Assembly: GCF_001499995.1 (NCBI RefSeq)
Contig: NZ_LQIU01000035.1
Location: forward strand, 10,432-42,431
DNA from: Mycobacterium sp. IS-1496
GTDB lineage: Bacteria > Actinomycetota > Actinomycetes > Mycobacteriales > Mycobacteriaceae
Direction of reading: 5' to 3'
Length of the DNA stretch: 32,000 nucleotides
Shown: one piece after another, positions 521 to 18,217 of the stretch
Layout: every line of letters begins with the position of its first letter
How positions within the stretch are numbered: the stretch's first letter is position 1
Translations under genes and position numbers: made by a program
Notes under the pieces: model-generated
Told to the model about the DNA's origin: nothing
The model's input: only the letters and a program-made list of their open reading frames with translations
Database searches by the model: none

Positions 521-921
521 GGCTGCACCGGTGACTCGACGATGACCGTGGTGGCCTTGACGACGGCCACCGCGACGCTGCCGGGTTCGAGCCCCAGCTC
601 ACGCACCGCGTCGGTGCTCATCAGCGACACCACCGTGAAGGGTCCGCACTGCATCTCCACCTGCGACATGACGGTGTCGCTGACCACGTCGGTGACCAGA
701 CCCGCGAACCGGTTGCGGGCCGAGCTGGGCGTCCCGAGCGGATCCTTCGGGGCCACGGCGGCGTTGGTGCGGGCGAACGCGGCGAGTTCGGCGCCGTCGA
801 CGACCTTGCGTCCGGATGCGTCGACCGAGGAGGCCAGGCTGCCGTCGTCGATCCACCGCCGGACGGTGTCGTCGCTGACGCCCAGCAGGTCGGCGGCCTG
901 GCGTACCCGGATGGTCGGCAT
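517..921 (-). CDS. MerR/excisionase-type HTH plus TOBE (Mop-like molybdate-binding) domain regulator
   Basis: The N-terminus MPTIRVRQAADLLGVSDDTVRRWIDDGSL is a typical short HTH. The C-terminus NRFAGLVTDVVSDTVMSQVEMQCGPFTVVSLMSTDAVRELGLEPGSVAVAVVKATTVIV is a TOBE fold. The gene lies immediately upstream of modA and is translationally coupled to it. Confidence 0.75.
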   Translation of the reverse strand: MPTIRVRQAADLLGVSDDTVRRWIDDGSLASSVDASGRKVVDGAELAAFARTNAAVAPKDPLGTPSSARNRFAGLVTDVVSDTVMSQVEMQCGPFTVVSLMSTDAVRELGLEPGSVAVAVVKATTVIVESPVQP

Positions 922-1112
922 GTGCGCATCCTACGGGCCGCACATGCGGTTAGTGTCGGGTTCTGCATCCGTACATGCGGAACCATGGGCCGATCGGCGG
1001 AGTCCACCGCGTCGTCTTCGACCGTATCGGTGGATAATTTGCTGTCCTTGGTGGTGGAATCGGACGCAATGCACACAAGCGGGGGTGGCGTCGTGGCAAG
1101 AGGTCCGTTGGT

Positions 1113-3176
1113 GTGCGCGGGCACCCGGGCGGTGTCGCGGAGGTGACCGAACACCCGCAGGCGGACGACGATCCGCGACTCGGCGCGCTGCTCGAATGGC
1201 GTCAACGGCTCATCGACACCGGCGCGGTGTCGGCCCGCAGCTTCAAGGAGGCCCACCTGCGCCTGGTGCTGCGGTCGGGGCGCACCGACGTCGAGCAGAT
1301 CCGGGCCATGCTCCCGGGATCGGTGTCCGAACACGCCGAGGACATGGCGCGCGTCCTGGCGGAACTGCCCGGCCCCACCGGCGCCGAGGCGACCGCCGCC
1401 GAGGACGACCCGACGGGCCGCCACCGCGGGGACGACCCCGCCGCCGAGGCCGCCGCAGCGCCGCCGTGGTTCGATCCGCTGTCCGGATCCCGCTCGGGGA
1501 TCGACGATTTCGCGCCGTACGCGGGAGACGCCCCGGCCGCCCCGGCGCACGGCGTCACGCTGCACCGCCGCCGCGACACCGGAGCCCTGGAACTGCGCTG
1601 GCCCGCGATCGACGCCACCGACCAGGTCGTCGTCTACCGCGTGGTCAGCGGGGAGGACGCCGCACCCCGGTCGCCCGACACCGCCGACCCGCTCGCGGTG
1701 ACCACTGCGACGTCGGCGACCGACGACCGGCCGCCGGTGGCCGCGGTGCGCCACTTCCAGGTGTGGGCGAACGTCGGCGCCACCGGGCCGGAAGCACGGG
1801 CGGCGCAACCCGTTCTGCATGCCGGCGGCGTGTTGATCGGCCGGATCACCGACCTCGCCCTGCAGGAGGACTCGGGCCGGGTGGTCGGCCGGTACACCGT
1901 GCCGCCCGGGGTCGGCGCGGTCTACGTGTACCGGATGCCCGTCGGCGAGGCGCACCACGACGGGCCGCAGTACCGCATCCTCGCCGGGCAGGACAACCTC
2001 GCCGGGTTCGTCGACATCGACGTCGAACGCGGATACCGCTACGTCTACCGGGTGCGCTGCGCGGCGCCCGTCGGCGGGGTGCTGCGACTCTCGGAGGCCG
2101 CGGAAGCCGGTGTGGACGTATCGGCGGTGCTGGCGCCGGTCACCGATCTCGCGATCACCGGCAGCACCGCGGACGCCACGGTGCTCGACCTCGCGTGGAC
2201 CACACCGCCGGGCGGACGCGTGGTCGTCTACCGCACACCCACCGGTCCGAGCGCGGGCGCCGAGGCCGACGAGCTGCCCGAGGACGCACTCGATCAGGTC
2301 GGTCTGCCACCGGAACTGCGCCTGGCGCAACCGGTCACCGAAGAGCGGGACGAGGACGGGCGAGTCCGCACCGCGATGCCCGGCGTGGCGTGGCCGGACC
2401 AGTGGAGCCGCGCCTACTTCACCCCGGTGACCCTCATCGGTGGCCGCGCCATGCTGGGCAAGACCTTCTCCACCGTGCGGACCGGGGTGATCCGCGACAT
2501 CGAACTCACGGAGTACTGCACCAAGCAGGTGCTCACCTTCGACTGGCCCGACGGCGCCGCTTCGGTCGTCGTCTACCTGGCCCCGCGGGGCCACGATCCC
2601 CGCAACGGGCTCACCGGGCAGACCTACGAGATCACGCTCGAGGAGTACGAGAAGTACGGCGGGCTACAGCTTTCGGGTCGACTGCCGGTACACGGCTGCT
2701 CGCTGCACCTGGCGCCGATCGCGTTCACCGGCGGGCGCCGTGTCATGGGCGCGATCGCCAGCGTCGACTACCAGGGACTGCTGAGGCTGCAGTACGCGGT
2801 GCGCGTCGGCCGCGACGCCGAGGGCCGGCCGTTCACCGCGACCATCGCGGTGCGCTCCGAATACGACCTGCCCGGCTCACCGGCGTTCGTGTTGGTCAAC
2901 AACCCGCACCGTATCCCCTTGAGCGTGCACGACGGTGAACTGGTCGACGTCGCCCCGCTCGACGATCAGGGCCGACTCGCCGCCCCGCCGGCCAAGGAAC
3001 TGCGGTGGTCCCAGCTCACCACGACCGGGGGCAGCGAATTGTGGGCCGCCAACGTCCGGAACCGGCAGGGCTGGATCCGCTTGTTCGTCAGCACGCCGTC
3101 ACCCGCCAGCCTGCGGTTGATCGCGCTGCTCGACCCACCGGTGGAGCACCTGCGGCTGATCCCGGCGGCGACATGA
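1113..3176 (+). CDS. Hypothetical cytoplasmic protein with four degenerate Fn3/Ig-like beta-sandwich repeats (first gene of the GTPase operon); start codon uncertain (GTG 1113 or GTG 1143)
   Basis: 687-aa ORF with coding-like composition. The motif L-x-L/F-x-W ... VVVYR recurs four times (ALELRWPAIDATDQVVVYRV; GAVYVYRMP...GFVDIDVERGYRYVYRVRC; VLDLAWTTPPGGRVVVYRT; VLTFDWPDGAASVVVYLA). No signal peptide or TM segment is present. The N-terminal ~70 aa (LLEWRQRLIDTGAVSARSFKEAHLRLVLRSGRTDVEQIRAMLPG) look helical and HRDC-like, which is a weak call. Its stop overlaps the next start (ATGA at 3173-3176). Confidence 0.7.
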   Translation: MRGHPGGVAEVTEHPQADDDPRLGALLEWRQRLIDTGAVSARSFKEAHLRLVLRSGRTDVEQIRAMLPGSVSEHAEDMARVLAELPGPTGAEATAAEDDPTGRHRGDDPAAEAAAAPPWFDPLSGSRSGIDDFAPYAGDAPAAPAHGVTLHRRRDTGALELRWPAIDATDQVVVYRVVSGEDAAPRSPDTADPLAVTTATSATDDRPPVAAVRHFQVWANVGATGPEARAAQPVLHAGGVLIGRITDLALQEDSGRVVGRYTVPPGVGAVYVYRMPVGEAHHDGPQYRILAGQDNLAGFVDIDVERGYRYVYRVRCAAPVGGVLRLSEAAEAGVDVSAVLAPVTDLAITGSTADATVLDLAWTTPPGGRVVVYRTPTGPSAGAEADELPEDALDQVGLPPELRLAQPVTEERDEDGRVRTAMPGVAWPDQWSRAYFTPVTLIGGRAMLGKTFSTVRTGVIRDIELTEYCTKQVLTFDWPDGAASVVVYLAPRGHDPRNGLTGQTYEITLEEYEKYGGLQLSGRLPVHGCSLHLAPIAFTGGRRVMGAIASVDYQGLLRLQYAVRVGRDAEGRPFTATIAVRSEYDLPGSPAFVLVNNPHRIPLSVHDGELVDVAPLDDQGRLAAPPAKELRWSQLTTTGGSELWAANVRNRQGWIRLFVSTPSPASLRLIALLDPPVEHLRLIPAAT

Positions 3177-5665
3177 CGGGTCGCTACGGACAGCTCAGCT
3201 ACACCTCGTTCGACACCGCCGCGCACATGGGCGGCTGGCAGGTCAAAGAGACCTCCGCCGACCTGTCCCCAGACGAGGTGCACGCCCTGACCTCCGGGGT
3301 GCGCACCGTGTTCCGGCCCGCGCAACCGCTGCCCGCGTATCCGACACCGGAGCAACTCGACCTCGGCCCGCGCCGGCTCGCCTACGGCACGCTCGACCGT
3401 GGGCGCGCCGGATACTGGCACACCGTGCCCGCCGGGTCCGACAGCACCGGCAGGCCCGGAAACGTGTTCGCCCACGCGCTTCTCGACCGTGCGGCGGGCG
3501 AACGGTCCGACCGCCCCATCCAGTGGTGGCGGTCCGACGGCTGGCTGTGTCCGTACGGTCCACACGCGGTGAGCGCCGCCGCACTGCCGGAAGAGCCACC
3601 CCCACCGGGGCGCGTGGTCACCAAGGACAGCGTCGTGCAGTTCGTGCTCGACCCCGGCGCCTGGCGGCTGGCGACGCTGTTCGGACTGCTCGACGCGGTC
3701 GCCGCCGCGCTCGACGGTGGGCCGCCCGTGGTGCTCGGTGTGGACTCGGCGGATTCGGCCGCCCAGTGGATCGGGCTGGTCAGTTTCCTGATGTCGTCGG
3801 GAACCGCTGCGCGTCTGCACTTCTCGACTTTCGACCGGGCCGACCAACTGAACCTGGCCCGGCAGAGCAGGCAGCACCTGACCGCGGTGCCCGTCGAAGA
3901 CCTCGAATTCGTCCCCGACGACGTCGTCGCGATCAGTGAGCACACGACGCTGTCGCTGGGCGAACTCGACCACGAACCGCACCGCACCGCCGACGGGCGG
4001 GCCATCACCGTCACACCGTGGTCGGCGATGGCGCAAGTGGTGCTGCTCGACGCCGAATCCGCGCGGTCCGTCCTCGACGACATCGACCACCACGCCGCGC
4101 AGGTCGCCGACGCGGGCCTGCATCCGGCCTGGCCACTGGCGATGTCGGTGGCGCACCGCGACGAGTTCGCCGACGCGCTCACCGAGGCGCACACCGTGAT
4201 CGCCGCGCATTCCCCGCGCGCCGCGAGTGATTCGGTGGTGGCCCGCACCCTGGCCGCCGTGATGCGCGCCGCGTTGGGTGCCGGCACCGCCGACGCGTGG
4301 AAAGCCCTGCAGGACAACGAGAACGGGCCCGCGGCAGATCTGGCCGAGCTGACGTATCTGTGCCGCGCCGTGGCCGACGAGGAATGGTTGAGCCGGCCGG
4401 GCCGGATCCCGTCCCGCGAACGGGGACCCGACCGGCACCCGCCGCCGCGGGAACTGCGCGAGGCCATCGGACCCGCCCTGGCCGCCGCGCGCAGCGGCGG
4501 CGCGTACCGGGTGGCGCGGTTGGCGGATCTGCTGCTGGGGTCGGGAATCGACGACGACCGGGTGACCGCCGCACTGCGTGCCGAGGTGGTCCCGGACCTG
4601 ATGAATCCCGAGGCGGCCCCGGCTCTGCTGGGTGAGTTGCGGGAGCGCGTCGGTGCGCCGACCCGGCTGGCGCTGGCGGCGGCGCTGCTGCAGGGTCCCG
4701 GCGACACCCCCGCGGTGGGTGGCGACGTCCTGGACTGGTTGGCCGACGGCATCCGGGCCCCGGCGCCACACGACCTGCGGGAAGCCGAGCCGTGGGATCC
4801 GGTGTGGACCAGGGCGGCGCTGCGCGGGATGCGGACCGTCGCGCGCGGCGCCGGTGACCAGGCCGACCGCTGGGCGAGCCTGTGGTGGTTGCGGGTCAGC
4901 GGCTCGGACCGCTTCGAACAGGTCGCGGGTGACTCGGTATGGCACCCGGACGAACTGCTTGCCGCCGTGGGGGATTCCGCCCTGCCCGGCGCGGCAGCGG
5001 TCCGCACGCTGGTCGGTGCGCCGGCGTCGGCCGCGCTGGACCGGTTGGCCCAGACGGTGCTTCGGGCCAACAACGACGACGTGGCGGTGGCGTGTGCGGC
5101 GGTGCGCGTCGTCGACCCGAGAGCCTGGATCGAACAGGGATTCGCCGCCAGCCACCAGGCGGCGTACGCGCCGCTGTGGGAGAAGGGACTGGAGACGGTC
5201 GGGACGGCGACCGCCCATCATGACTTCGCCGTGCGACTGGTGACGTTCGCGGCGATCGGGCTCGCGTCCGGAGCGCCCTATCCACCGTCGAGCGCGATCC
5301 TGGCCGGCGACCCGCAGGTGAGCGCCGGCGCCTTCAGACATCTCGCCGCGCTCCTCGACGGCTACGTCCTCAACGCCGTGTCGGTGCTCGCGGTGGCCGC
5401 ACTGCGCTTCGCGCACAACGGTGACGACCCGGTGGCGGTGACGGACGGAATCGAAGGGCTGATCTGGCAGGGCGCGCGGCATGTCATGGCCACCCGCCGG
5501 CCCGAGTCCATCGACGTCGACATGATCGCCGCCACCATGGCCGGACTCACCGGCGAGCCGACCGACGGTGCCGTCCGCCGGCATCGCAGGACGGTGCTGA
5601 GACTGCTGGCCCGCCGACCGGACGCGCAGACCGCGCCGATCGCCCGAACCCGCTGGAGCCGTTGA
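3173..5665 (+). CDS. Large (830 aa) GTPase-associated-protein-1 (GAP1)-like hypothetical protein
   Basis: I take ATG 3173 rather than the ORF-track start 3005 because it forms an ATGA overlap with the upstream stop. The N-terminus is MTGRYGQLSYTSFDTAAHMGGWQVKETS...GRPGNVFAHALL. I recall the QL-x-YTS / GN-x-FAH pattern from the computationally defined GAP1 N-terminal domains. The rest is a long Ala/Leu-rich helical region with no TM. Family assignment is from memory and needs an HMM search. Confidence 0.6.
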   Translation: MTGRYGQLSYTSFDTAAHMGGWQVKETSADLSPDEVHALTSGVRTVFRPAQPLPAYPTPEQLDLGPRRLAYGTLDRGRAGYWHTVPAGSDSTGRPGNVFAHALLDRAAGERSDRPIQWWRSDGWLCPYGPHAVSAAALPEEPPPPGRVVTKDSVVQFVLDPGAWRLATLFGLLDAVAAALDGGPPVVLGVDSADSAAQWIGLVSFLMSSGTAARLHFSTFDRADQLNLARQSRQHLTAVPVEDLEFVPDDVVAISEHTTLSLGELDHEPHRTADGRAITVTPWSAMAQVVLLDAESARSVLDDIDHHAAQVADAGLHPAWPLAMSVAHRDEFADALTEAHTVIAAHSPRAASDSVVARTLAAVMRAALGAGTADAWKALQDNENGPAADLAELTYLCRAVADEEWLSRPGRIPSRERGPDRHPPPRELREAIGPALAAARSGGAYRVARLADLLLGSGIDDDRVTAALRAEVVPDLMNPEAAPALLGELRERVGAPTRLALAAALLQGPGDTPAVGGDVLDWLADGIRAPAPHDLREAEPWDPVWTRAALRGMRTVARGAGDQADRWASLWWLRVSGSDRFEQVAGDSVWHPDELLAAVGDSALPGAAAVRTLVGAPASAALDRLAQTVLRANNDDVAVACAAVRVVDPRAWIEQGFAASHQAAYAPLWEKGLETVGTATAHHDFAVRLVTFAAIGLASGAPYPPSSAILAGDPQVSAGAFRHLAALLDGYVLNAVSVLAVAALRFAHNGDDPVAVTDGIEGLIWQGARHVMATRRPESIDVDMIAATMAGLTGEPTDGAVRRHRRTVLRLLARRPDAQTAPIARTRWSR

Positions 5666-5666
5666 C

Positions 5667-6824
5667 GTGACGAAATGCCCGCGGTGCTTTGCGGTACTGG
5701 ACCCGAACCAATACCTGTGGACACTTCCCCCGCAGGCCGGCGGCACCCGCTACCGCGACGACCTCGCGTCGTCCTACCTCGGGGCGCCCGCCGATTCGGG
5801 TGCGCTCTACACCTGGGCCCGCCCGCCCGGCTACACCGGACCGCCGCCACCGCTGTCGGAAGCCAGTCAGGCGCTGCAGGGTCCGGCGGTGGAGATCTGC
5901 CCGGTCTGCCACTTCATGCTTCCCGACGACTGGAGAAACGGTCACGCCGTCTGCATCGCGATGGCCGGCGCCCGCGCCACGGGCAAGAGCCTCTACATCG
6001 GCGTGCTGGTCAAACAACTCGAGTTGCTGTGCGAACACCTGGGGGTGTCCATGCAGCCGGTCACCCGCGCGACCGCGGTGGCCTACACGACGAACTACGA
6101 GACGCCGCTGTACGTGCAGCGCGGTCTGGTGCCGCCGACCCCCACCGTGCAGACGCAGGCGTCCCATCAACGTGAGCCGCTCATCTACGGCATCGGGGTG
6201 TGGCACGGCGTCCGGCGCTACCTGGTGTTGCGTGACGTCGCGGGGGAGGATCTGGAGTCCGGCGATCTGCACACCCCGCCGTTCCGGTTCTTCGCCAATG
6301 CCGACGCGGTGTTCTTCATGTTCGACCCGTTGCGGATCAAGGGGATTCGCGACCAACTCCATGACCTGCTCCCGGCCCAGGCGTTCAGCGGCGGCGATCC
6401 GCGCGCGGTGCTGAACAACGTGTTGCACGCCGTCGGCGCCACTCAGCCCAAACTCGCCGTGATCGTGTCGAAGTTCGACGCGCTGCGGGTGTTGCGCGAC
6501 GTCGAGGGCTCGGAGTGGAGCCTGATCATGTCCAACGCCGGGGCGGCCTATCTGCGGGATCCGTCGGACACCCCGCACTACGACGAGTCGGACGGACAGT
6601 TGTTGCACGAGGAGGTGCGCAGCCTGCTCACCCGGTTGCACGGCGGGGCGATCGTCGCGGCAGTGGAGAACCCGTCGACCGGCATGAGGCTGCCGCACCG
6701 GTACTTCGCCGTCTCCGCTCTCGGCGCACCCCCGAGCGGAAACCGACTGCATTCGCGGGGCATCGCGCCGTTCCGCACCGTCGACCCGGTGCGGTGGGTG
6801 ACCGCACCCTACGGCGTCCTCTGA
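5667..6824 (+). CDS. Zinc-ribbon-containing TRAFAC-class P-loop GTPase (possible DO-GTPase family member)
   Basis: GTG start lies 1 nt after the upstream stop. The motifs are G1 GARATGKS (aa 101-108, nt 5967-5990), G3 LRDVAGED (aa 188-195) and G4 VSKFD (aa 267-271). An N-terminal CPRC (aa 4-7) and CPVC (aa 78-81) form a split Cys4 zinc ribbon around a Pro-rich insert. Confidence 0.8.
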   Translation: MTKCPRCFAVLDPNQYLWTLPPQAGGTRYRDDLASSYLGAPADSGALYTWARPPGYTGPPPPLSEASQALQGPAVEICPVCHFMLPDDWRNGHAVCIAMAGARATGKSLYIGVLVKQLELLCEHLGVSMQPVTRATAVAYTTNYETPLYVQRGLVPPTPTVQTQASHQREPLIYGIGVWHGVRRYLVLRDVAGEDLESGDLHTPPFRFFANADAVFFMFDPLRIKGIRDQLHDLLPAQAFSGGDPRAVLNNVLHAVGATQPKLAVIVSKFDALRVLRDVEGSEWSLIMSNAGAAYLRDPSDTPHYDESDGQLLHEEVRSLLTRLHGGAIVAAVENPSTGMRLPHRYFAVSALGAPPSGNRLHSRGIAPFRTVDPVRWVTAPYGVL

Positions 6825-6887
6825 CGCATCCGTCGATTACGGCACGGCACCGGGCGAACCGCATCCGGCCGCAAGGACCCCCCGATT

Positions 6888-6896
6888 GGTTAGCAT
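6888..6896 (+). promoter_or_regulatory. Candidate -10 element (GGTTAGCAT; hexamer TAGCAT 6891-6896) for the FHA-HTH gene
   Basis: It fits the mycobacterial TANNNT -10 pattern and ends 30 nt upstream of ATG 6927. A GGGGGAGG Shine-Dalgarno sits at 6916-6923. The same 9-mer family occurs at 948, 11881 and 25435. Confidence 0.25.
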
Positions 6897-6926
6897 CGCA
6901 GAGCGAAGTGATCGCGGGGGAGGTCG

Positions 6927-7967
6927 ATGGTGCAGGGCGCTGGCGAACCCGTTCCGGCCCTGCGGATCCGGTGCGAGGAGATCCCGTACACCCTGGTGCC
7001 CGGCGACGCGCCGATCCTGATCGGCCGCGAACTGCCGGCGCAGATCCGGGTCGACGATCCACGGATCTCGCGGGTGCATGTCCGGGTCGCCGTCGACGGC
7101 GGCCATTGGGTGATGAGCGACGCCGGCAGCACCAACGGGGTGTTCGTCGACGGGAAGCGGGTGGATTCGGTGGAGATCCGGGGCACCGTGACCGCCCGGC
7201 TGGGGCATGCCGAGGGCATCGCGGTGACCCTGACGGTCGACGGCGCGGCCGTTCACGACGGGACCGCGGTGGACATCGACGTGGACGTCGCCCGTGCCGG
7301 TGTGGCTGTCGCGGACCGTCGCGAGGAACTCGGCTTCACCAGGCGCCGACTGGATACCGACGGGGTGATCGACCAGCAGACGCTGGCCGACTTCGAGGCC
7401 GGCAGGCGGTGGCCGTCCGACGATGCGCGGGCCCGGCTCGAGGAGCACCTCAAATGGCCGTCGGGCGCCATCGCCGCGGTGCGGGCCGGTGGCCCCGCGC
7501 CCGAGGACGAGAGCACCGAGATCCTCTCCGACACAGTCCAGATGGCGGTGATGGTCGACGCCGCCTACATCGGGCTCGGCAACGTGAAGGCCCGGATCGA
7601 CAAGGCGCCACCCCAGGACGATGGGGCCTATGACGAGTATGTCGGGGCGCTGCTGTTCGATCTGCGCGGGCTGGAGAAGATGGCCCGCAACGCGGGCAGG
7701 ACGACCGGGCGTCCGGACGTCGCCGTCGTGCTCAGGGACATCCGCCGCACGTACAACAACCTGATGGTGCGGGCGGCGCAGGCACCGGGTGCGCCGCTGA
7801 GCCGACGGCTCTACGCCGCGCGGCACTGCGCCGAGTTGACCGTCGAGGAGACCGCGGACGCGGCCGGGGTCAGCGTCGAGGCCGTCACCGATGCGGAGGC
7901 CGGCCGTGCCGACGCCACCGCCGCCGCCGCGCTCGAGGCCTTGGTGCGCCGGCTCGCCGACCGCTGA
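6927..7967 (+). CDS. FHA domain + two XRE-type HTH domains: putative phosphothreonine-responsive transcription regulator
   Basis: The FHA core is PILIGRELPAQIRVDDPRISRVHVRVAVDGGHWVMSDAGSTNGVFVDGKRV (G-R...S-R-x-H...S-T-N-G). The middle HTH is RREELGFTRRRLDTDGVIDQQTLADFEAGRRWP. The C-terminal HTH is RLYAARHCAELTVEETADAAGVSVEAVTDAEAG. Confidence 0.8.
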   Translation: MVQGAGEPVPALRIRCEEIPYTLVPGDAPILIGRELPAQIRVDDPRISRVHVRVAVDGGHWVMSDAGSTNGVFVDGKRVDSVEIRGTVTARLGHAEGIAVTLTVDGAAVHDGTAVDIDVDVARAGVAVADRREELGFTRRRLDTDGVIDQQTLADFEAGRRWPSDDARARLEEHLKWPSGAIAAVRAGGPAPEDESTEILSDTVQMAVMVDAAYIGLGNVKARIDKAPPQDDGAYDEYVGALLFDLRGLEKMARNAGRTTGRPDVAVVLRDIRRTYNNLMVRAAQAPGAPLSRRLYAARHCAELTVEETADAAGVSVEAVTDAEAGRADATAAAALEALVRRLADR

Positions 7968-10782: not shown

Positions 10783-11103
10783 ATGCGCCGCACGACAAGA
10801 TCGGCGCCGTCTACGATCCACTCGATGAGCGAGCCCTCCGGCGGGCTGACCGCTGATGCCGTCCGCAACGCCACCTTCTCGAAACCCGCGTGGAACAAGC
10901 GGGGCTACGACCCCAAATCGGTACGGGACTTCTTGGCGTTGACGGCCCGCCGCCTCGAGGGCCGCGGCCACCTCTGCGCCGACGACGTCCGGCTGATCAG
11001 GTTCCCGAAGCCGCCGATCGGCCGGCGCGGATACCACGACGGCGAGGTCGACCAGTACATGTCGAGGGTGGCTGCGGCGATCGCCGCGCTCGACGGTCAG
11101 TGA
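10783..11103 (+). CDS. Small DivIVA-domain protein with two tandem DivIVA N-terminal motifs; start may instead be ATG 10825
   Basis: The pattern F-x-x-x-x-x-x-GY-x-x-x-x-V-x-x-(F/Y) occurs twice (FSKPAWNKRGYDPKSVRDFL and FPKPPIGRRGYHDGEVDQYM). A GGGGA motif lies 7-8 nt before ATG 10783. Confidence 0.6.
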   Translation: MRRTTRSAPSTIHSMSEPSGGLTADAVRNATFSKPAWNKRGYDPKSVRDFLALTARRLEGRGHLCADDVRLIRFPKPPIGRRGYHDGEVDQYMSRVAAAIAALDGQ

Positions 11104-11283: not shown

Positions 11284-11577
11284 TCACGCGGACTCGGGAA
11301 ACACCCGGCGGATCGCGCGGACGGGATAGCCGTTGCGCTCGGCCAGCGAACGAAGTTGCTTGAGCGCAAAGGTCCGGCCGCGGCCGGCTTCCGGGATGAC
11401 GATGCCGGCCCACAGGCCCTCGGCGCGCGGCAGTTCGACCGCGTCGCGGGCACACATCCAGCGGCGCGGGCAGCCCCGGCAGATGGCCTTGGCCTCTTCG
11501 TCCGCCGTAGTGGTCCAACGCTCCGGATCGCGGGTGCAGGCGCCGACCGGGACCTCCAGGAATGTCACGTTGCTCAT
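11284..11577 (-). CDS. whiB6: WhiB-family Fe-S transcription factor, WhiB6-like by position
   Basis: Four Cys in the WhiB arrangement (GAC...AICRGCPRRWMC) plus the GLWAGI turn motif. I take ATG 11577 (MSNVTFLEV...) because GAAGGAG lies 6 nt upstream; the ORF-track start 11610 has no SD. The gene is on the opposite strand upstream of the ESX-1 genes, as Rv3862c is in M. tuberculosis. Confidence 0.85.
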   Translation of the reverse strand: MSNVTFLEVPVGACTRDPERWTTTADEEAKAICRGCPRRWMCARDAVELPRAEGLWAGIVIPEAGRGRTFALKQLRSLAERNGYPVRAIRRVFPESA

Positions 11578-11934: not shown

Positions 11935-12690
11935 ATGACCAACGCGGAGTCGATCGACGAGGCGACCGGGATCCTCGACGCCGGGGTCGCGCGCGCGGGT
12001 GCCGCGGCCGCCGCGCGGCGCCGTGAACTCGACATCAGCCAGCGCAGCCTGGCCGCCGACGGCATCATCAACGCCGGCGCGCTGATCGCCTTCGAGAAGG
12101 GTCGGAGCTGGCCGCGCGAGCGTACCCGGGCAAAGCTGGAAGAGGTGTTGCGCTGGTCTCCGGGAACCATCGCCAAGCTGCGCCGGGGTGAGCCGGTCGG
12201 CGTCCGCGACGCCACGACCGCCCCGGCCCCGGTTGCGGCCCCCACGGCGCCGGCCGGTGCCGAGGCGCCGCTCATCGCCCAGGCCGTCGAGGCCGCGGTT
12301 CACACGCTCGGCGCCACCGCGGACGTCCTGCCCCCCGTCGACGATCCGGACTTCACGCCCCGGGTCACCACGATTCTGTCCGACCTGCGGCAGCTCGAGG
12401 CGGTGGCGGCTCGAGCGGCTCGTATCGGGAAGGTCACCCCGCCCCTGATCAAGGCGCTCAGCGCGGTGCGCGGGCGGATCGACGAGCTGACGATGCTCGC
12501 GGCCACCGCGCCGAACGCCACCTTGGGGCAGCGGCTGTACGCGGTCCGCAGACGAGCCAATCTGACGATCAGCGAGACCGCGCAGGCGGCGGGCGTCTCC
12601 GACGACGACATCGCCGACGCGGAATCGGAACGGCCGATCTCGGAGGCGGCATCGGCGGCCGTCGAGACGCTGATCGGCGCGCTGGAGTGA
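11935..12690 (+). CDS. Double XRE-type HTH protein, FHA-less paralogue of the 6927-7967 product
   Basis: It aligns by eye with the C-terminal ~240 aa of the FHA protein. Compare RRRELDISQRSLAADGIINAGALIAFEKGRSWPRERTRAKLEEVLRWSPGTIAKLRRGE with RREELGFTRRRLDTDGVIDQQTLADFEAGRRWPSDDARARLEEHLKWPSGAIAAVRAG. Compare also the C-terminal LGQRLYAVRRRANLTISETAQAAGVSDDDIADAE with LSRRLYAARHCAELTVEETADAAGVSVEAVTDAE. Confidence 0.75.
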   Translation: MTNAESIDEATGILDAGVARAGAAAAARRRELDISQRSLAADGIINAGALIAFEKGRSWPRERTRAKLEEVLRWSPGTIAKLRRGEPVGVRDATTAPAPVAAPTAPAGAEAPLIAQAVEAAVHTLGATADVLPPVDDPDFTPRVTTILSDLRQLEAVAARAARIGKVTPPLIKALSAVRGRIDELTMLAATAPNATLGQRLYAVRRRANLTISETAQAAGVSDDDIADAESERPISEAASAAVETLIGALE

Positions 12691-13804: not shown

Positions 13805-14836
13805 TCAGGGCACCGGCACGGGGGTGGGCGTCGGGAGCGGTGCGCCCTGGCCGTGCGGCACGGGTGCCTGATCGCCGGTGCTCACCGGGATCGGCGCAGG
13901 ACCGCTGCCCGCCGGCTGAGGCGCGGGCTGGGCCGGAGCCGCCGGGGCCGGAGCCGCGGGGGCCGGAGCCGCCGGAGCGGGCGCAGGTGCGGCCGGGGCC
14001 GGAGCCGGGCTGCCCTGGCTACCCGCGGGCAGCGGGGTGCCCTGCGCGCCGGCCGGCAGTGGGGTGCCGGAACTGCCCGCGGGCAACGGGGTGCCCGAGC
14101 TGGTGGCGGGCAGTGGGGTGCCCGAGCTGGTGGCCGGAAGCGGCGTGCCGGAGCTGCCCGCGGGGAGCGGGGTGCCCGAGCTGCCTGCGGGGGCCGGGAC
14201 CAGTTCGGCGCCGGCGGGAGCGGGTTCGCCGGGGGTGGCCGGTTCGACGGCCTCGGCGTCGGCCGGCGGAGTCGACTGCGCGGCCTGCGGCGCCGACGAC
14301 GTGGCGCTTCCGGACGGCGAGGAGGCCGACCGCGGGGTGGAGGACGGCGTGCTCGACGGAGCCGGCTGCACCCACAGCAGCAGATCCTGGCCGCCGTCGT
14401 TGTAGACGACGCTGTCGGGCTGGGCGCCGGTGACGTCGAAGTACAGCTTTCCGGTGGTCTCCTGGCCCTGGCCGAGGGTCGCGGGGTTGACGCCCTGCGC
14501 CGTGGCGACCTGCCACAGCGCGCGGTAGGTCTGACCGTCCTTAGCCCGGGCGTTGAAGTTCGACACGATCGGCGTCGCCGCGCCCTGGATCGCCTGGTCG
14601 GTGGCGGTGGCCTCCCACAGTGTTCCGCGTACGGCGTAGGGGATCGTGTCGGTGCTGGCCTTCAGACCGGTGACGGTCCAGCCCTGCACCACCGATCCGT
14701 TGACCAGATCGGCCTGCTGGCCGATCTCGTGGACGGCGGGGCCCGCCGGCGCACCCGACTCCGCCCCGGCGATCGGTGCGGCCATGACCGCACCGGCGGT
14801 CGCGACGGTTGCTGCCAATACTGTGGTGATCTTCAA
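13805..14836 (-). CDS. Secreted MPT63/MPB63-domain (DUF1942, Ig-like) protein with a ~185-aa Pro/Ser/Thr/Ala-rich repeat tail
   Basis: TTG start with AGGGAG upstream and a signal peptide MKITTVLAATVATAGAVMAAPIAGA|ES. The core VVQGWTVTGLKASTDTIPYAVRGTLWEATATDQAIQGAATPIVSNFNARAKDGQTYRALWQ...GKLYFDVTG...DLLLWVQP closely parallels M. tuberculosis MPT63 as I recall it (VVLGWKVSDLKSS...QVWEATATVNAIRGSVTPAVSQFNARTADGINYRVLWQ...GKIYFDVTG...DLLIWEP). Confidence 0.85.
   Translation of the reverse strand: MKITTVLAATVATAGAVMAAPIAGAESGAPAGPAVHEIGQQADLVNGSVVQGWTVTGLKASTDTIPYAVRGTLWEATATDQAIQGAATPIVSNFNARAKDGQTYRALWQVATAQGVNPATLGQGQETTGKLYFDVTGAQPDSVVYNDGGQDLLLWVQPAPSSTPSSTPRSASSPSGSATSSAPQAAQSTPPADAEAVEPATPGEPAPAGAELVPAPAGSSGTPLPAGSSGTPLPATSSGTPLPATSSGTPLPAGSSGTPLPAGAQGTPLPAGSQGSPAPAPAAPAPAPAAPAPAAPAPAAPAQPAPQPAGSGPAPIPVSTGDQAPVPHGQGAPLPTPTPVPVP
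14003..14191 (-). repeat. In-frame 27-nt tandem repeat x7 encoding P-A-(G/T)-S-S-G-T-P-L, adjacent to an (A/P)n tract at 13907-14002
   Basis: Seven consecutive 27-nt plus-strand units of the form cagYggggtgccSgagctgSYSgcSgg. The translation is PAGSSGTPL x2, PATSSGTPL x2, PAGSSGTPL, PAGAQGTPL, PAGSQGSPA. Confidence 0.85.
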
Positions 14837-14954: not shown

Positions 14955-16295
14955 TCAGCCGCGTTCCCGGGAACGGTCGTCGGTGACCGGGAAGTGATCG
15001 GCCAGCGCCGCCGCGAGTTCGAGGAACTTCCGCCGCGCCGCGGGGGACATCTCCCGCGTCCCGTCGATGACTCCGCCGGGACGCAGGTGCCCGTCGAACG
15101 GGATCTCGATCACCCGCTGACCGTGGCCCGCGAACTGCTGCGCCAGGATGGACCGGGTGCGCTTGTCGGCATGGCCGTCGGAGTCGTTGAGCACCACCAC
15201 GGTTCGCTGCAGGAGGCCGGTCATGCCCCGGGCCGCCAGCCAGTCCAGCGTCTGCCCGGCCGCGGCCGCTCCGTCCACCCAGGGTGAGGAGACCACGATC
15301 AACGCGTCGAGATCGCGCAGCACCTCCTGGGTCACAGGGGAGTCCATGGTGGAACTGCAGTCGACGATCGAGATGGAGAAGTACCTGTCGAGCCGTGAGG
15401 CGGCCTCGCGGTAGATGGCCGGGTCGAGCACTCGTCGACGTGCCGGCGACCCCTCCCCGGCGAGGACGAACAACCCGGCGGCGTTGTTGCCGACCCGGCT
15501 TCGCACATCGGCGAACGAGTCCAGGTGTTGATCGGAGGCGAGTTCCCAGTAGGACCCCTGCGCGTTGGGGTCGACCCGGCTGCCCAGTTTGCCGAACGCC
15601 GTGTCGGCGTCGATCGCCACCACGCGGTCGTCCTGCCGGAGCTCGGCGAAGACCGAGCCGATGCTGGCCGAGACGGTCGTCTTGCCGACGCCGCCCTTGC
15701 CCATCACACCGACCTTGTAGTGCCCTCTCAAGACACCGCGGATCTTGTTCTCCAGCTCGAGCCGACGTAGCTCGTCGGGTGACTGACCGGGATCGATCCG
15801 CCCGAAGCTCAGGCGGTAGACCCACCGGCGCCAGCCGCGCCCCGGCGGCGTGCGGCGCGGCGGCACCAGCCGGTCGACGCGGATCCCCTCGGTGTAGGAA
15901 CCCGGGTGTGGCGGGGGAGCGCCCATCGGGCCGGCCGGCCCGTACTGCTCCTGCGGCCAGCCCTGCCCCATCGGTGCCGGACCCTGGGGCGCCGGCGGTC
16001 CGGCAGGCGGCCGAGGCCCACGGGCGGGCTGCCAGCCCGGTGGCTGACCCCAGCCGGTGGATTGCGGATCGTGTGGTGCGGGTGGCGGCCCCGGCCGCAT
16101 CTGCTGGGTGTCACGGAAGCTGACGCGCCGCTCCGGATCGCTGATCACGGTGGGCACGTCGGCCGGGGGCGGCACGTTGGGGACCGCGGGGGGCGGACCG
16201 TGCCGTCCCGAGGGGCCGGTGTCCGGTTCGAAGTTCTCGTCCTCCGGGCCGGTCCAGCCGAGCTCTCTACGGAGGGCGTCATCGCGGTCGGTCAC
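14955..16295 (-). CDS. ParA/MinD-like ATPase with a proline-rich N-terminal region; paralogue of EspI
   Basis: GTG start with GGAGGAG 6 nt upstream. It has the deviant Walker A GVMGKGGVGKTT. The C-terminal 280 aa align by eye with the EspI-like protein at 28081-29502: SPDELRRLELENKIR / SPDELYEMDMHARIR; AIDADTAFGKL / AIDADPDAGNL; IVDCSS / LADCGA; LDWL / MDWM. The N-terminal 160 aa are Pro/Gly/Gln-rich. Confidence 0.85.
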   Translation of the reverse strand: MTDRDDALRRELGWTGPEDENFEPDTGPSGRHGPPPAVPNVPPPADVPTVISDPERRVSFRDTQQMRPGPPPAPHDPQSTGWGQPPGWQPARGPRPPAGPPAPQGPAPMGQGWPQEQYGPAGPMGAPPPHPGSYTEGIRVDRLVPPRRTPPGRGWRRWVYRLSFGRIDPGQSPDELRRLELENKIRGVLRGHYKVGVMGKGGVGKTTVSASIGSVFAELRQDDRVVAIDADTAFGKLGSRVDPNAQGSYWELASDQHLDSFADVRSRVGNNAAGLFVLAGEGSPARRRVLDPAIYREAASRLDRYFSISIVDCSSTMDSPVTQEVLRDLDALIVVSSPWVDGAAAAGQTLDWLAARGMTGLLQRTVVVLNDSDGHADKRTRSILAQQFAGHGQRVIEIPFDGHLRPGGVIDGTREMSPAARRKFLELAAALADHFPVTDDRSRERG

Positions 16296-16825
16296 TACGG
16301 TCTCCTCCGGCGGTCAGGCGAGACGGACGTCGCCCAGTATCGACCACGTTCCCCACGATTCGCGCGGCCCCGGCCGGTACGCGCCATCAGCAAAGTTACG
16401 GCCTCCGAACCCCCGCGGTGTGGCCATCCCGGATGTGCGGGTGGCCCGGCGCACCGCACATGTGCCGCCGGATTTTGCGCACCGAACGGTCGCGTCGCGG
16501 CATCGGTGACGGCGCGAGCGCCTTGCGCGTTCGCTGAGGAACGCTTTCCACGGAGTTGATCGGCAGAAGCATGCACGAATGTATATTGCTGACCAGTCGG
16601 TGGATGTGCTGGGCGGGACGGTGGCCCCGGGCGGAAAATCGTGCGCTGGAGGTGCGTGGTGCGCTGGTACGCTCACTTGCGGCGAAGGGACGCCGAACGT
16701 GGTGTTTCGCCGACGCTGTTGCGGGATGCGGCAAAGGTCCGAACAATCCAGGGCAGAAGCCACCGTGCACACCGCGCGATGAGAGTTGGGGGTCCGATGG
16801 GTGAGCTGCGGGTCGCGGGAGTCCG
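16296..16825. promoter_or_regulatory. 530-bp divergent intergenic region (ParA-like gene <-> espG); probable ESX-1 upstream control region
   Basis: This is the largest non-coding gap in the window. It contains an AT-richer patch (catgcacgaatgtatattgctgacc, ~16570-16595), a perfect 10-bp palindrome GCACATGTGC (16456-16465) inside an imperfect hairpin (16433-16462), and GTGCGCTGG direct repeats at 16641 and 16659. Confidence 0.5.
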
Positions 16826-17674
16826 ATGATGGCCGGCGCACCGGCCGCGTCCAGCGGCACCCACTACGACGACGTGGTCGCCGTGGAGGTCACGATCGAC
16901 GGGATGCTCGTCATCGCCGACCGCATGAACACCACGGACTTCCCGCCCTCGCTGGGTATCCGGCTGAACATCCCGCAGCCCGATCTTCGCAAGATCGTGT
17001 GGGAGCAGGTGGCCCGCGATCTCACCGAGCAGGGCGTGCTGAACCTCTACGGTGATCCGCACCCCGAGGTCGCGGCGATGGTGGACACCCTGAGCCGGCC
17101 CGATCGGATCCTCGAAGGGCGCTGGTGGCGCCGCGACGTCGGCGGCAAGATGGTCCGCTTCGTCGTCTGCCGCAAGGGTGACCGCCACGTCGTCGCCGCC
17201 CGGGACGACGAGATGCTGGTCCTGCAGCGCGTCGCGCCGCAGATCGGTCTGGCCAACATGGTCACCACGGTGCTCGGCAGTGCCGCGCCCGCCGACGTCG
17301 AACCGCTGACCGGTGTCGCCCGCAAGCTCGCCGAGTGCCGCACCCCGAACGAACTGCAGGCCTACGGGATACCGCTGCCGTCGGCACGCGCCTATGCCGA
17401 CATCATCAGCGAGCCGTCGAGCTGGGTGGAGCTCACCGCGACCGAACGCCACCCGGGCGGCACCCAGACCACCGCGGACGTCGCCGCCGGGGTGCTCGAC
17501 TCCCCACACGGCCGCATCGTCTCGATTCCCCGCCGGGTCAGTGGTGAGCTGTACGGCAGCTTCCTGCCCGGGACGCAGGAGAACCTGCAGCGGGCGCTCG
17601 ATGGGCTGGTGGACTTCCTCCCGTCGAGGACGTGGTTCGACCACAGCGACGCCGACGCGTTCCACGGGGAGTGA
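16826..17674 (+). CDS. espG1: ESX-1 secretion-associated chaperone EspG
   Basis: The sequence VEVTIDGMLVIADRMNTTDFPPSLGIRLNIPQPDLRKIVWEQVARDLTEQGVL...RPDRILEGRWWRRDVGGKMVRFVVCRKGDRHVVAARD...GSFLPGTQENLQRALDGL is collinear with and highly similar to M. tuberculosis EspG1 as I recall it. Confidence 0.9.
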   Translation: MMAGAPAASSGTHYDDVVAVEVTIDGMLVIADRMNTTDFPPSLGIRLNIPQPDLRKIVWEQVARDLTEQGVLNLYGDPHPEVAAMVDTLSRPDRILEGRWWRRDVGGKMVRFVVCRKGDRHVVAARDDEMLVLQRVAPQIGLANMVTTVLGSAAPADVEPLTGVARKLAECRTPNELQAYGIPLPSARAYADIISEPSSWVELTATERHPGGTQTTADVAAGVLDSPHGRIVSIPRRVSGELYGSFLPGTQENLQRALDGLVDFLPSRTWFDHSDADAFHGE

Positions 17675-17686
17675 GCGGGACCCTCC

Positions 17687-18217
17687 ATGGTGGGTGACAT
17701 TTCGCCGCGCGACCCCGACGACGACGCCGACAACCTCTCGGCGCTCGGCTTCTATCGACCCGTCGTCGCCGACGACGAGTCCGACCTCGCCGCGCTCGAC
17801 GCCTTCGTCGCGTATGTCCCGTCGGGGGAGGGCGGCGACGAACCGTACACACCGGTGCCCCTGACAGATCCGGAACCCGAACCGGAGCCGCTGTTCTCGG
17901 TGACGAACCCACCCGGCACCGTCACCGTCACCAGCCACCTCGACGGTCGCGTCCAGCGGATCGACCTGTCACCGCGGGTGGCGCACATGTCGGAAACCGA
18001 ACTCGCGGAGGAGATCGTGGTGATCGCGGGACTGGCCGCACAGGACGCCAAGTCGGCGCAGTACGAGTACATGCTCGACGGGATGCGGGAACAGGGGCAC
18101 GACGACCCCGCGACCCGCGACTTCCTGCAGCGCGACCTCGAACTGCCGTCACCCGAGGAGGCGCGGGCACGCCGCGCCGAAATCTTCGCCACCAGGTATG
18201 CGGGCAGCCATGAGTGA
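17687..18217 (+). CDS. espH: ESX-1 secretion-associated protein EspH (YbaB-like core)
   Basis: An acidic N-terminus is followed by LFSVTNPPGTVTVTSHLDGRVQRIDLSPRVAHMSETELAEEIVVIAGLAAQDAKSAQYEYM...LPSPEEARARRAEIFATRY, which parallels M. tuberculosis EspH (LFTVTNPQGSVSVSTLMDGRIQHVEL...LPTPEEAAAAEAEVFATRY). The position between espG and eccA matches. Confidence 0.85.
   Translation: MVGDISPRDPDDDADNLSALGFYRPVVADDESDLAALDAFVAYVPSGEGGDEPYTPVPLTDPEPEPEPLFSVTNPPGTVTVTSHLDGRVQRIDLSPRVAHMSETELAEEIVVIAGLAAQDAKSAQYEYMLDGMREQGHDDPATRDFLQRDLELPSPEEARARRAEIFATRYAGSHE

Follow-up and report, generated by a model that had tools for sequence, protein, structure and literature searches.

The window analysed in this study, a 32,000-nt stretch of DNA from Mycobacterium sp. 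IS-1496, carries three genes packed end to end on the + strand at 1113-6824, upstream of the ESX-1 secretion locus. Judged from sequence, the trio is the SaeA-SaeB-SaeC module of this fast-growing species, and it appears to belong to the GAP1-N2/DO-GTPase2 'GTPase-centric' systems (GAP1, GTPase-associated protein 1) as a reduced form that lacks an effector. The best explanation of its function, which we think somewhat likelier to be right than wrong, is a GTP-gated scaffold or licensing factor that promotes ESX-1 assembly or activity.

Tuberculous mycobacteria have ESX-1 as their main virulence secretion system, and in M. smegmatis it drives conjugal DNA transfer. To our knowledge, the switching of ESX-1 assembly and activity is poorly understood. 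The Sae genes were reportedly named from a genetic screen in 2008. In that year Coros et al. are said to have found, as the UniProt entries are said to repeat, that both EsxB secretion and DNA transfer into the recipient are lost in M. smegmatis when saeA-C carry transposon insertions. The open literature on saeA, saeB and saeC (MSMEG_0044-46) yielded only a proteomics table naming SaeC and no paper on Sae mechanism. The GAP1/DO-GTPase family dates from a computational study of 2020, which predicted it to be an immune system (PMC7159879). An earlier note on this DNA had called the module uncharacterised. This does not hold for its genes, which have been named, or for its family, which has been described, and the element was already annotated and classified; it does hold for the mechanism, which is undescribed in the open literature searched. 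Against that literature, two things are new: the explicit link between Sae/ESX-1 genetics and the GAP1/DO-GTPase family, and the reading of the ESX-1-linked trio as a reduced paralogue derived from a tubulin-type operon. The link gives the ESX-1 field testable residues (SaeC K107, E194 and D271, and the GRPGNxFxH motif of SaeB), and for the GAP1/DO-GTPase field it supplies the one organism in which a phenotype can be scored. The derivation from a six-gene tubulin operon suggests which partners were replaced.

The three genes and their products

The genes, junctions and predicted domains are listed here (FN-III, fibronectin type III; AF2, AlphaFold2; pLDDT, predicted local distance difference test score).

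1113-3176, + strand: saeA-like gene (gene 1), FN-III-repeat protein, 687 aa from GTG 1113 or 677 aa from GTG 1143
1158-1370, + strand: predicted N-terminal five-helix domain of SaeA, residues ~6-76 of the 677-aa form; AF2 helices 11-74, pLDDT ~90
1545-3173, + strand: predicted FN-III-like beta-sandwich array of SaeA, ~5-6 domains (AF2 and Foldseek), after a disordered variable linker (residues ~77-134)
3173-3176, + strand: ATGA stop/start overlap of saeA and saeB, read in the sequence; the saeB ATG lies inside ATGA
3173-5665, + strand: saeB-like gene (gene 2), GAP1 protein, 830 aa
3188-3568, + strand: GAP1-N2 domain of SaeB, residues 6-132; PF20013, E 1.8e-18, 67.4 bits against a cutoff of 24
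3683-3910, + strand: GAP1-M domain of SaeB, residues 171-246; PF20014, E 2.2e-10, 41.1 bits against a cutoff of 24
5663-5669, + strand: saeB TGA, one base and saeC GTG; TGA ends at 5665 and GTG starts at 5667, with GGAG 9 nt upstream of GTG
5667-6824, + strand: saeC-like gene (gene 3), putative DO-GTPase2-family TRAFAC GTPase, 385 aa
5667-5939, + strand: N-terminal Cys module of SaeC, residues 1-91; CxxC at 4-7 and 78-81; pLDDT 90-95
5940-6725, + strand: predicted GTPase core of SaeC; G1 G101-S108, G2 T158, G3 D190-E194 (with the Walker B Glu), G4 S268-D271, G5 S350-G353

Three end-to-end + strand genes, with ATGA at 3173-3176 and a 1-nt gap at 5665/5667, had been described in the earlier note, and this layout was confirmed from the list of open reading frames (ORFs) and the raw sequence. 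The window is ~70% G+C. Since the third-position GC of the three + strand frames is 0.86-0.90, the trio was taken as real + strand genes rather than long antisense ORFs. For the start of saeA, the NCBI model of the identical protein P0241 uses GTG 1143 (677 aa); the alternative GTG 1113 has GAGG 9 nt upstream, and a longer N-terminus is annotated in some homologues. The SaeA/SaeB [AG]TGA overlap is kept in nearly all of ~60 related loci, and the SaeB/SaeC TGA-N-[AG]TG junction in nearly all three-gene loci, a few having small overlaps or a 30-nt gap. Because both junctions are conserved across related loci, their packing is not due to chance. These results indicate that the junctions are selected rather than accidental, and that saeA, saeB and saeC are probably translationally coupled. 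A promoter and terminator scan of 800-7100 gave no signal above shuffles, such a scan being uninformative for mycobacterial promoters.

SaeC is predicted, from its sequence and its AF2 model, to be a TRAFAC-type GTPase in which all nucleotide-binding motifs are conserved. The motifs that had been read in gene 3, GARATGKS (G101-S108), DVAGE (D190-E194) and SKFD (S268-D271), are indeed present and conserved. The conserved positions are G101-x4-G106-K107-S108, T158, D190-x-x-G193-E194, S268-K269-x-D271 and S350-A-L352-G353. As shown by alignment A1 and the distant-homologue alignment A5, the G1-G5 columns are invariant or nearly so, and G1-G5 with the Walker B Glu remain invariant down to 25% identity. 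The model (pLDDT 84, predicted template-modelling score 0.87) matched only TRAFAC GTPases in Foldseek, and weakly: eEF1A, G-alpha, RagA-like and MglA, at E 1e-6 to 1e-4. The DO-GTPase match in Pfam anticipated for gene 3 was obtained in part. SaeC itself scores below the DO-GTPase2 (PF19993) cutoff (18.1 bits, E 0.0022, cutoff 27), but its orthologues in two loci of the scan described below, L016 and L067, reach it (27.7 bits). A precomputed PF19993 match is also found on many SaeC homologues. A profile built from 55 SaeC homologues retrieved 2049 representative clusters at E<=1e-3, and DO-GTPase2 was found in 34 of 44 sampled representatives of the SaeC family (25-54% identity; best E 1.8e-11). 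SaeC can thus be placed in the DO-GTPase2 family by transitive homology.

The N-terminus of SaeC had been described as a Cys4 zinc ribbon. Four Cys are present as two CxxC pairs, the second of which (C78, C81) is invariant and the first (C4, C7) almost so in alignment A1, but the pairs stand 70 residues apart. Most SaeC-family members have 8-9 Cys in three to four CxxC-type pairs. These results suggest that the Cys module of SaeC is a degenerate remnant of two zinc ribbons. Mycobacterial SaeC proteins, from full six-gene and three-gene loci alike, have lost the inner Cys knuckles of both ribbons, which are kept in Rhodococcus and most family members. The reduced module is still modelled with pLDDT >90.

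SaeB is identical (100%) to P0001 of Mycobacterium sp. IS-1496. Its start had been recognised as the hallmark of GAP1 N-terminal domains, which is borne out by matches to PF20013 and PF20014, both above the Pfam threshold. The N-terminal 400 residues contain many invariant positions, including GRPGNxFxH. The GAP1-C domain that was also expected did not appear: the C-terminal 580 residues have no Pfam match at E<=10, GAP1-C included, although the library may lack a GAP1-C model suited to the N2 type. From these matches, SaeB appears to be a GAP1 protein in which the N2 and M domains precede a long C-terminal region that is more variable. The absence of transmembrane helices claimed for all three products stands for SaeA and SaeC by Kyte-Doolittle analysis; SaeB has one moderately hydrophobic helix.

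SaeA had no match in the Pfam copy that we scanned directly. However, P0241, which is 100% identical over 677 aa, carries six precomputed Pfam families, PF25831-PF25836, which are newer families. The AF2 model of SaeA (pLDDT 86) contains a five-helix N-domain, a disordered linker and ~5-6 beta-sandwiches, and its top Foldseek match is fibronectin FN-III 7-10 (1fnf, E 6.8e-13). The four beta-sandwich repeats counted earlier were therefore an underestimate, and the conserved helical N-domain had been missed. Mean column conservation is 0.85 in the N-domain, which is among the most conserved parts of SaeA, 0.32 in the linker, 0.67-0.72 in the first three sandwiches and 0.78-0.85 in the last ones. 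SaeA is thus modelled as a highly conserved helical domain with an FN-III array after it. The equivalent domain in actinobacterial tubulin-theme FN-III proteins was called HRDC by Kaur et al. (PMC7159879). We could not confirm this identity for SaeA: the N-domain had no Pfam HRDC match at E<=10 and no PDB profile match, and hhalign against the HRDC domain of E. coli RecQ gave a probability of 0.4%, while the control found HRDC at 5e-25. No sequence relative of SaeA, SaeB or SaeC was found by PDB sequence search, and none of the three matched NCBIfam.

Selection on the trio was examined by pairwise ratios of non-synonymous to synonymous substitution rates (dN/dS) against five close relatives. 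The ratios were 0.16-0.21 for SaeA, 0.20-0.33 for SaeB and 0.05-0.09 for SaeC, within the range of neighbouring metabolic genes. Identity to locus L021 was 52-55% for SaeA and SaeB, compared to 77-84% for SaeC and the ESX core. These results show that all three genes are under purifying selection; as far as gene-wide, not site-specific, dN/dS can tell, the trio carries no sign of an arms race.

Sae identity, family membership and descent

The earlier note had suggested that the trio might be equivalent to saeA-C of M. smegmatis, and several observations support this. Homologues that are 52-79% identical carry the Sae names in database annotations, with SaeA on homologues of gene 1 and SaeB on homologues of gene 2, and it is through these homologues that the trio is identified (M. 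smegmatis SaeC is UniProt A0QNH6). The precomputed Pfam family SaeC_ESX1_N (PF27062) is placed on this same gene 3 protein. The trio also lies in the expected place: saeC ends at 6824, upstream of whiB6 (11284-11577, - strand) and of eccA1 (start at 18198). The MSMEG numbering of the region has been reported (PMC12502791), and in fortuitum-group loci the gene count from saeC through whiB6 and the ParA-like gene to eccA1 fits MSMEG_0046, 0051, 0053 and 0059. Rv3860, which had been put forward for comparison with the trio, is unrelated to it and was ruled out as a Sae homologue, since it is a ParA-like protein orthologous to MSMEG_0053 (PMC12502791). Its likely counterpart in the window is a CbiA/ParA ORF at 14955-16295 on the - strand.

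Kaur et al. defined the core of GAP1-N2 systems, found mainly in actinobacteria, as a DO-GTPase bearing a zinc ribbon, a GAP1-N2 protein and a rapidly evolving FNIII-repeat protein (PMC7159879). In the same study, a conserved Walker B Glu was described as a hallmark of the DO-GTPase family, the GTPase has one or two zinc ribbons, and a second paralogous GTPase is optional, two being present in 38% of systems. The variable output components include tubulin, HSP70, kinase/PP2C, SLATT and others, and derived systems without tubulin or HSP70 were recognised. The domains of gene 2, the homologues of gene 3 and the FN-III repeats of gene 1 match this defined core, which supports the earlier assignment of the trio to the GAP1/DO-GTPase systems of Kaur et al. 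In PADLOC-DB v2, SaeA, SaeB and SaeC matched no defence family at E<=0.1.

A scan with SaeC, using one genome per species, gave 80 loci, and their architectures were mapped by tblastn. Two forms were found. In the full operon, the order is a Tubulin_2 protein (~1176 aa; PF13809, E 2.3e-48), a membrane protein (~880 aa, two transmembrane segments), a SaeA-like protein, a SaeB-like protein carrying GAP1-N2 and GAP1-M, a 308-aa protein with a DTSAS vWA-like motif, and a SaeC-like protein. This order is conserved from Rhodococcus and Antrihabitans to Mycobacterium and corresponds to the actinobacterial tubulin theme of Kaur et al. The window carries the three-gene form, and no homologue of the tubulin-like, membrane or vWA-like genes was found within its 32 kb. 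The neighbourhoods were tabulated for co-occurrence with ESX-1, as the earlier note had advised. Markers of whiB6/ESX-1 follow 25 of 28 three-gene loci, with two of the three exceptions ending at contig edges, compared to 3 of 49 full loci (L008-L010).

In neighbour-joining (NJ) trees of SaeC and SaeA, which carry no support values, the three-gene loci form two clades nested within the full systems. These trees suggest that the trio descends from the six-gene system, and they are compatible with either one loss or two. Both forms are present in several genomes. In Mycobacterium sp. DL99, the full operon and the trio stand in tandem on one scaffold, ~8.6 kb apart, upstream of ESX-1 (L013, L044). 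In L008-L010 (M. brisbanense, M. aquaticum), the full operon occupies the ESX-1-proximal position and no three-gene copy is present. Both arrangements suggest that the system was duplicated locally and then reduced. Two complete genomes (L031, L052) yielded a three-gene copy and no other, and therefore this form probably works without a tubulin partner in trans.

Some full systems vary at the SaeB position. In one branch (L067, L069, L062, L073), the SaeA-like and vWA-like genes have no detected SaeB/GAP1-like gene between them, and in L063 and L074 the stretch matching this position is only ~1.1 kb. L067 also has a 327-aa partial ORF upstream of the tubulin gene, with no Pfam match.

Proposed function and rival explanations

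In the mechanism that we propose, the cytoplasmic SaeA, SaeB and SaeC proteins would form a stoichiometric complex, in which SaeC, probably as a homodimer, would cycle between GTP and GDP states. SaeB would couple this cycle to SaeA and control the binding of a client by SaeA. The conserved C-terminal sandwiches of SaeA may dock on the complex, and the variable N-proximal FN-III domains and linker may bind the client. Client binding would then license ESX-1 assembly or activity through protein-protein contacts, a role that would replace the polymer and membrane output of the parent system. A wider claim, which we put forward tentatively and hold to be doubtful, is that a tubulin-type GAP1-N2 'conflict' system was domesticated to give the ESX-1-linked trio, which has shed the polymer, membrane and vWA output and whose GTPase-GAP1-FNIII switch now licenses the assembly or activity of a type VII secretion system (T7SS). 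If so, the only known phenotype in the family (~2000 representative clusters) would point to the assembly or regulation of an envelope machine and not to immunity, and the full systems might also build or control membrane-associated structures.

Several points weigh against a licensing role in ESX-1. The complex, the dimer and the client are inferences, and neither PDB sequence search nor the open literature searched gave biochemical or structural data for any family member. The ESX-1 phenotype reportedly described by Coros et al. in 2008 may be due to polarity or to some indirect effect. In the window, the trio is separated from whiB6 by ~4.5 kb of unrelated metabolic genes, so the adjacency to ESX-1 could be inherited synteny. 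The two ESX-1-linked clades amount to about two evolutionary events, and the count of 25 in 28 loci overstates their independence. Proteins of the M. kansasii complex (full type) are among the 120 best SaeC relatives, and no protein of M. tuberculosis or M. marinum is among them; for this reason Sae is not considered a universal part of ESX-1.

The trio could instead be a conflict system against phages or plasmids, in which the FN-III protein senses the invader and the GTPase-GAP1 pair sets a threshold, the place next to ESX-1 being inherited synteny and the ESX-1 phenotype indirect. Membership in the family, which was so interpreted by Kaur et al. (PMC7159879), is established, and the six-gene parent occurs in 46 loci without ESX-1 markers nearby, including those of Rhodococcus and Antrihabitans. 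The faster evolution of SaeA and SaeB relative to SaeC and the ESX core, seen in their identities to L021, also agrees with this idea. We nevertheless regard it as unlikely. Nothing in the trio resembles an effector, the window lacks the tubulin-like, membrane and vWA-like genes, and no PADLOC match was obtained. The gene-wide dN/dS of SaeA and SaeB (0.16-0.33) is no higher than that of neighbouring metabolic genes such as the thioesterase, and the trio is stably syntenic across two clades, unlike patchy defence islands. The loss of DNA uptake that sae recipients are said to show is the opposite of what the loss of a barrier would give. A regulator of esx-1 expression was weighed as well, that is, a GTPase complex acting upstream of WhiB6 or the HTH regulators, possibly through nucleic-acid binding by the N-domain of SaeA. 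The trio does stand among regulators: an FHA+HTH gene directly downstream, whiB6, a second HTH gene and the ParA-like orthologue of Rv3860. Rv3860/MSMEG_0053 was reported in a 2025 paper to be necessary for transcription of pe35-ppe68-esxB-esxA (PMC12502791). The N-domain is also highly conserved in SaeA, and its counterpart was taken by Kaur et al. for HRDC, a DNA-binding fold (PMC7159879). However, neither Pfam, PDB profile search nor hhalign confirmed HRDC in SaeA, Pfam detected no DNA-binding domain in SaeB or SaeC, and the FHA+HTH neighbour is specific to the clade of the window and not conserved with the trio. The chance that we give to such a regulator is just as small as that of the conflict system.

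The three-gene copy might finally be a decaying, functionless duplicate of the full tubulin-type system, seeing that three of the six genes are lost, the zinc ribbons are degenerate and several genomes keep a full copy as well. This is highly improbable, and the pseudogene reading was rejected because dN/dS is well below 1 and the GTPase motifs are invariant. All three ORFs are intact in ~28 loci, the junctions are conserved, and in the two complete genomes mentioned above the three-gene copy is the sole one detected. The loss of Cys appears to be older than the duplication, since the full-type SaeC of L016 shares it.

Neighbouring genes and known systems

The ESX-1 features downstream of the trio in the window are as follows.

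11284-11577, - strand: whiB6
16826-17674, + strand: espG1
17687-18217, + strand: espH-like gene
from 18198: eccA1, then eccB1, eccCa1, eccCb1, PE/PPE, two ESAT-6-sized ORFs (so called by size alone), espI and eccD1

The 446-aa CbiA/ParA-like protein at 14955-16295, the likely Rv3860/MSMEG_0053 counterpart, is encoded upstream of espG1 on the strand opposite to eccA1. The FHA+HTH regulator at 6927-7967 (+) directly follows saeC. It is paralogous (35-39% identity) to the HTH gene at 11935-12690 (+), which is divergent from whiB6, and both genes carry the precomputed family PF27182, MSMEG_6518_N. The FHA-HTH copy was found only in the clade of the window (L002, L005, L033, L060). A small DivIVA-like protein of ~92-106 aa is encoded at 10783-11103 (+) (Pfam DivIVA, E 1.9e-5, below the cutoff), and its gene adjoins whiB6 in nearly all ESX-1-linked loci examined. 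At 13805-14836 (-), where the gene caller found nothing, there is a 343-aa ORF whose third-position GC is 0.87; its N-terminus (LKITTVLAATVATAGAVMAAPIAGA) resembles a signal peptide, and its C-terminus is rich in Pro. A 421-aa ORF at 16673-17938 (-) was tried as a synteny marker and rejected as spurious, the real genes there being espG1 and the espH-like gene on the + strand. Its tblastn matches in other loci are an artefact of these conserved + strand genes; long antisense ORFs in this high-GC DNA are not genes.

The closest known system is SaeABC of M. smegmatis, the ESX-1 'scaffolding and assembly' proteins, which have the same gene order and sizes as the trio and the same place upstream of whiB6/ESX-1. 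The two differ in species and clade: the clade of the window and the fortuitum-group clade are separate NJ branches, and M. smegmatis, which is outside the loci compared, is placed with the fortuitum group by assumption, given that M. goodii, a close relative, has scores similar to those of the group. The clade of the window also has extra genes between saeC and whiB6, encoding the FHA-HTH regulator, an F420-dependent reductase, a thioesterase, an acetyltransferase and an EVE protein. In the full tubulin-theme operons (L016 of M. peregrinum, L067, and L079 of Rhodococcus opacus), the SaeA-, SaeB- and SaeC-like proteins are 36-82% identical to those of the trio, with the same order and the same overlapping junction. 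These operons differ in having three extra genes and in lying mostly away from ESX-1.

The trio resembles the GAP1-N2 systems of Kaur et al. in its actinobacterial host and in its parts: the GTPase is of the DO-GTPase2 family and has Cys knuckles at its N-terminus and the Walker B Glu, the GAP1 protein carries N2 and M, and the third protein has FN-III repeats. It differs from them in having a single GTPase gene (as do the full operons), in the position of the GAP1 gene upstream of the GTPase gene and not downstream, and in zinc ribbons cut to two CxxC pairs. It also has no effector, transmembrane or variable component and no detected GAP1-C, and it adjoins a type VII secretion locus, with no mention of ESX or T7SS in PMC7159879. 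The MglA/MglB, Ras-like and G-alpha switches are comparable by analogy only. They share with SaeC the TRAFAC GTPase fold and the pairing of a GTPase with a dedicated partner, but the likeness to SaeC is weak (template-modelling score 0.25-0.46, ~10% identity). The trio has no sequence relation to the partner proteins of these switches, and the N-terminal Cys module is SaeC's own.

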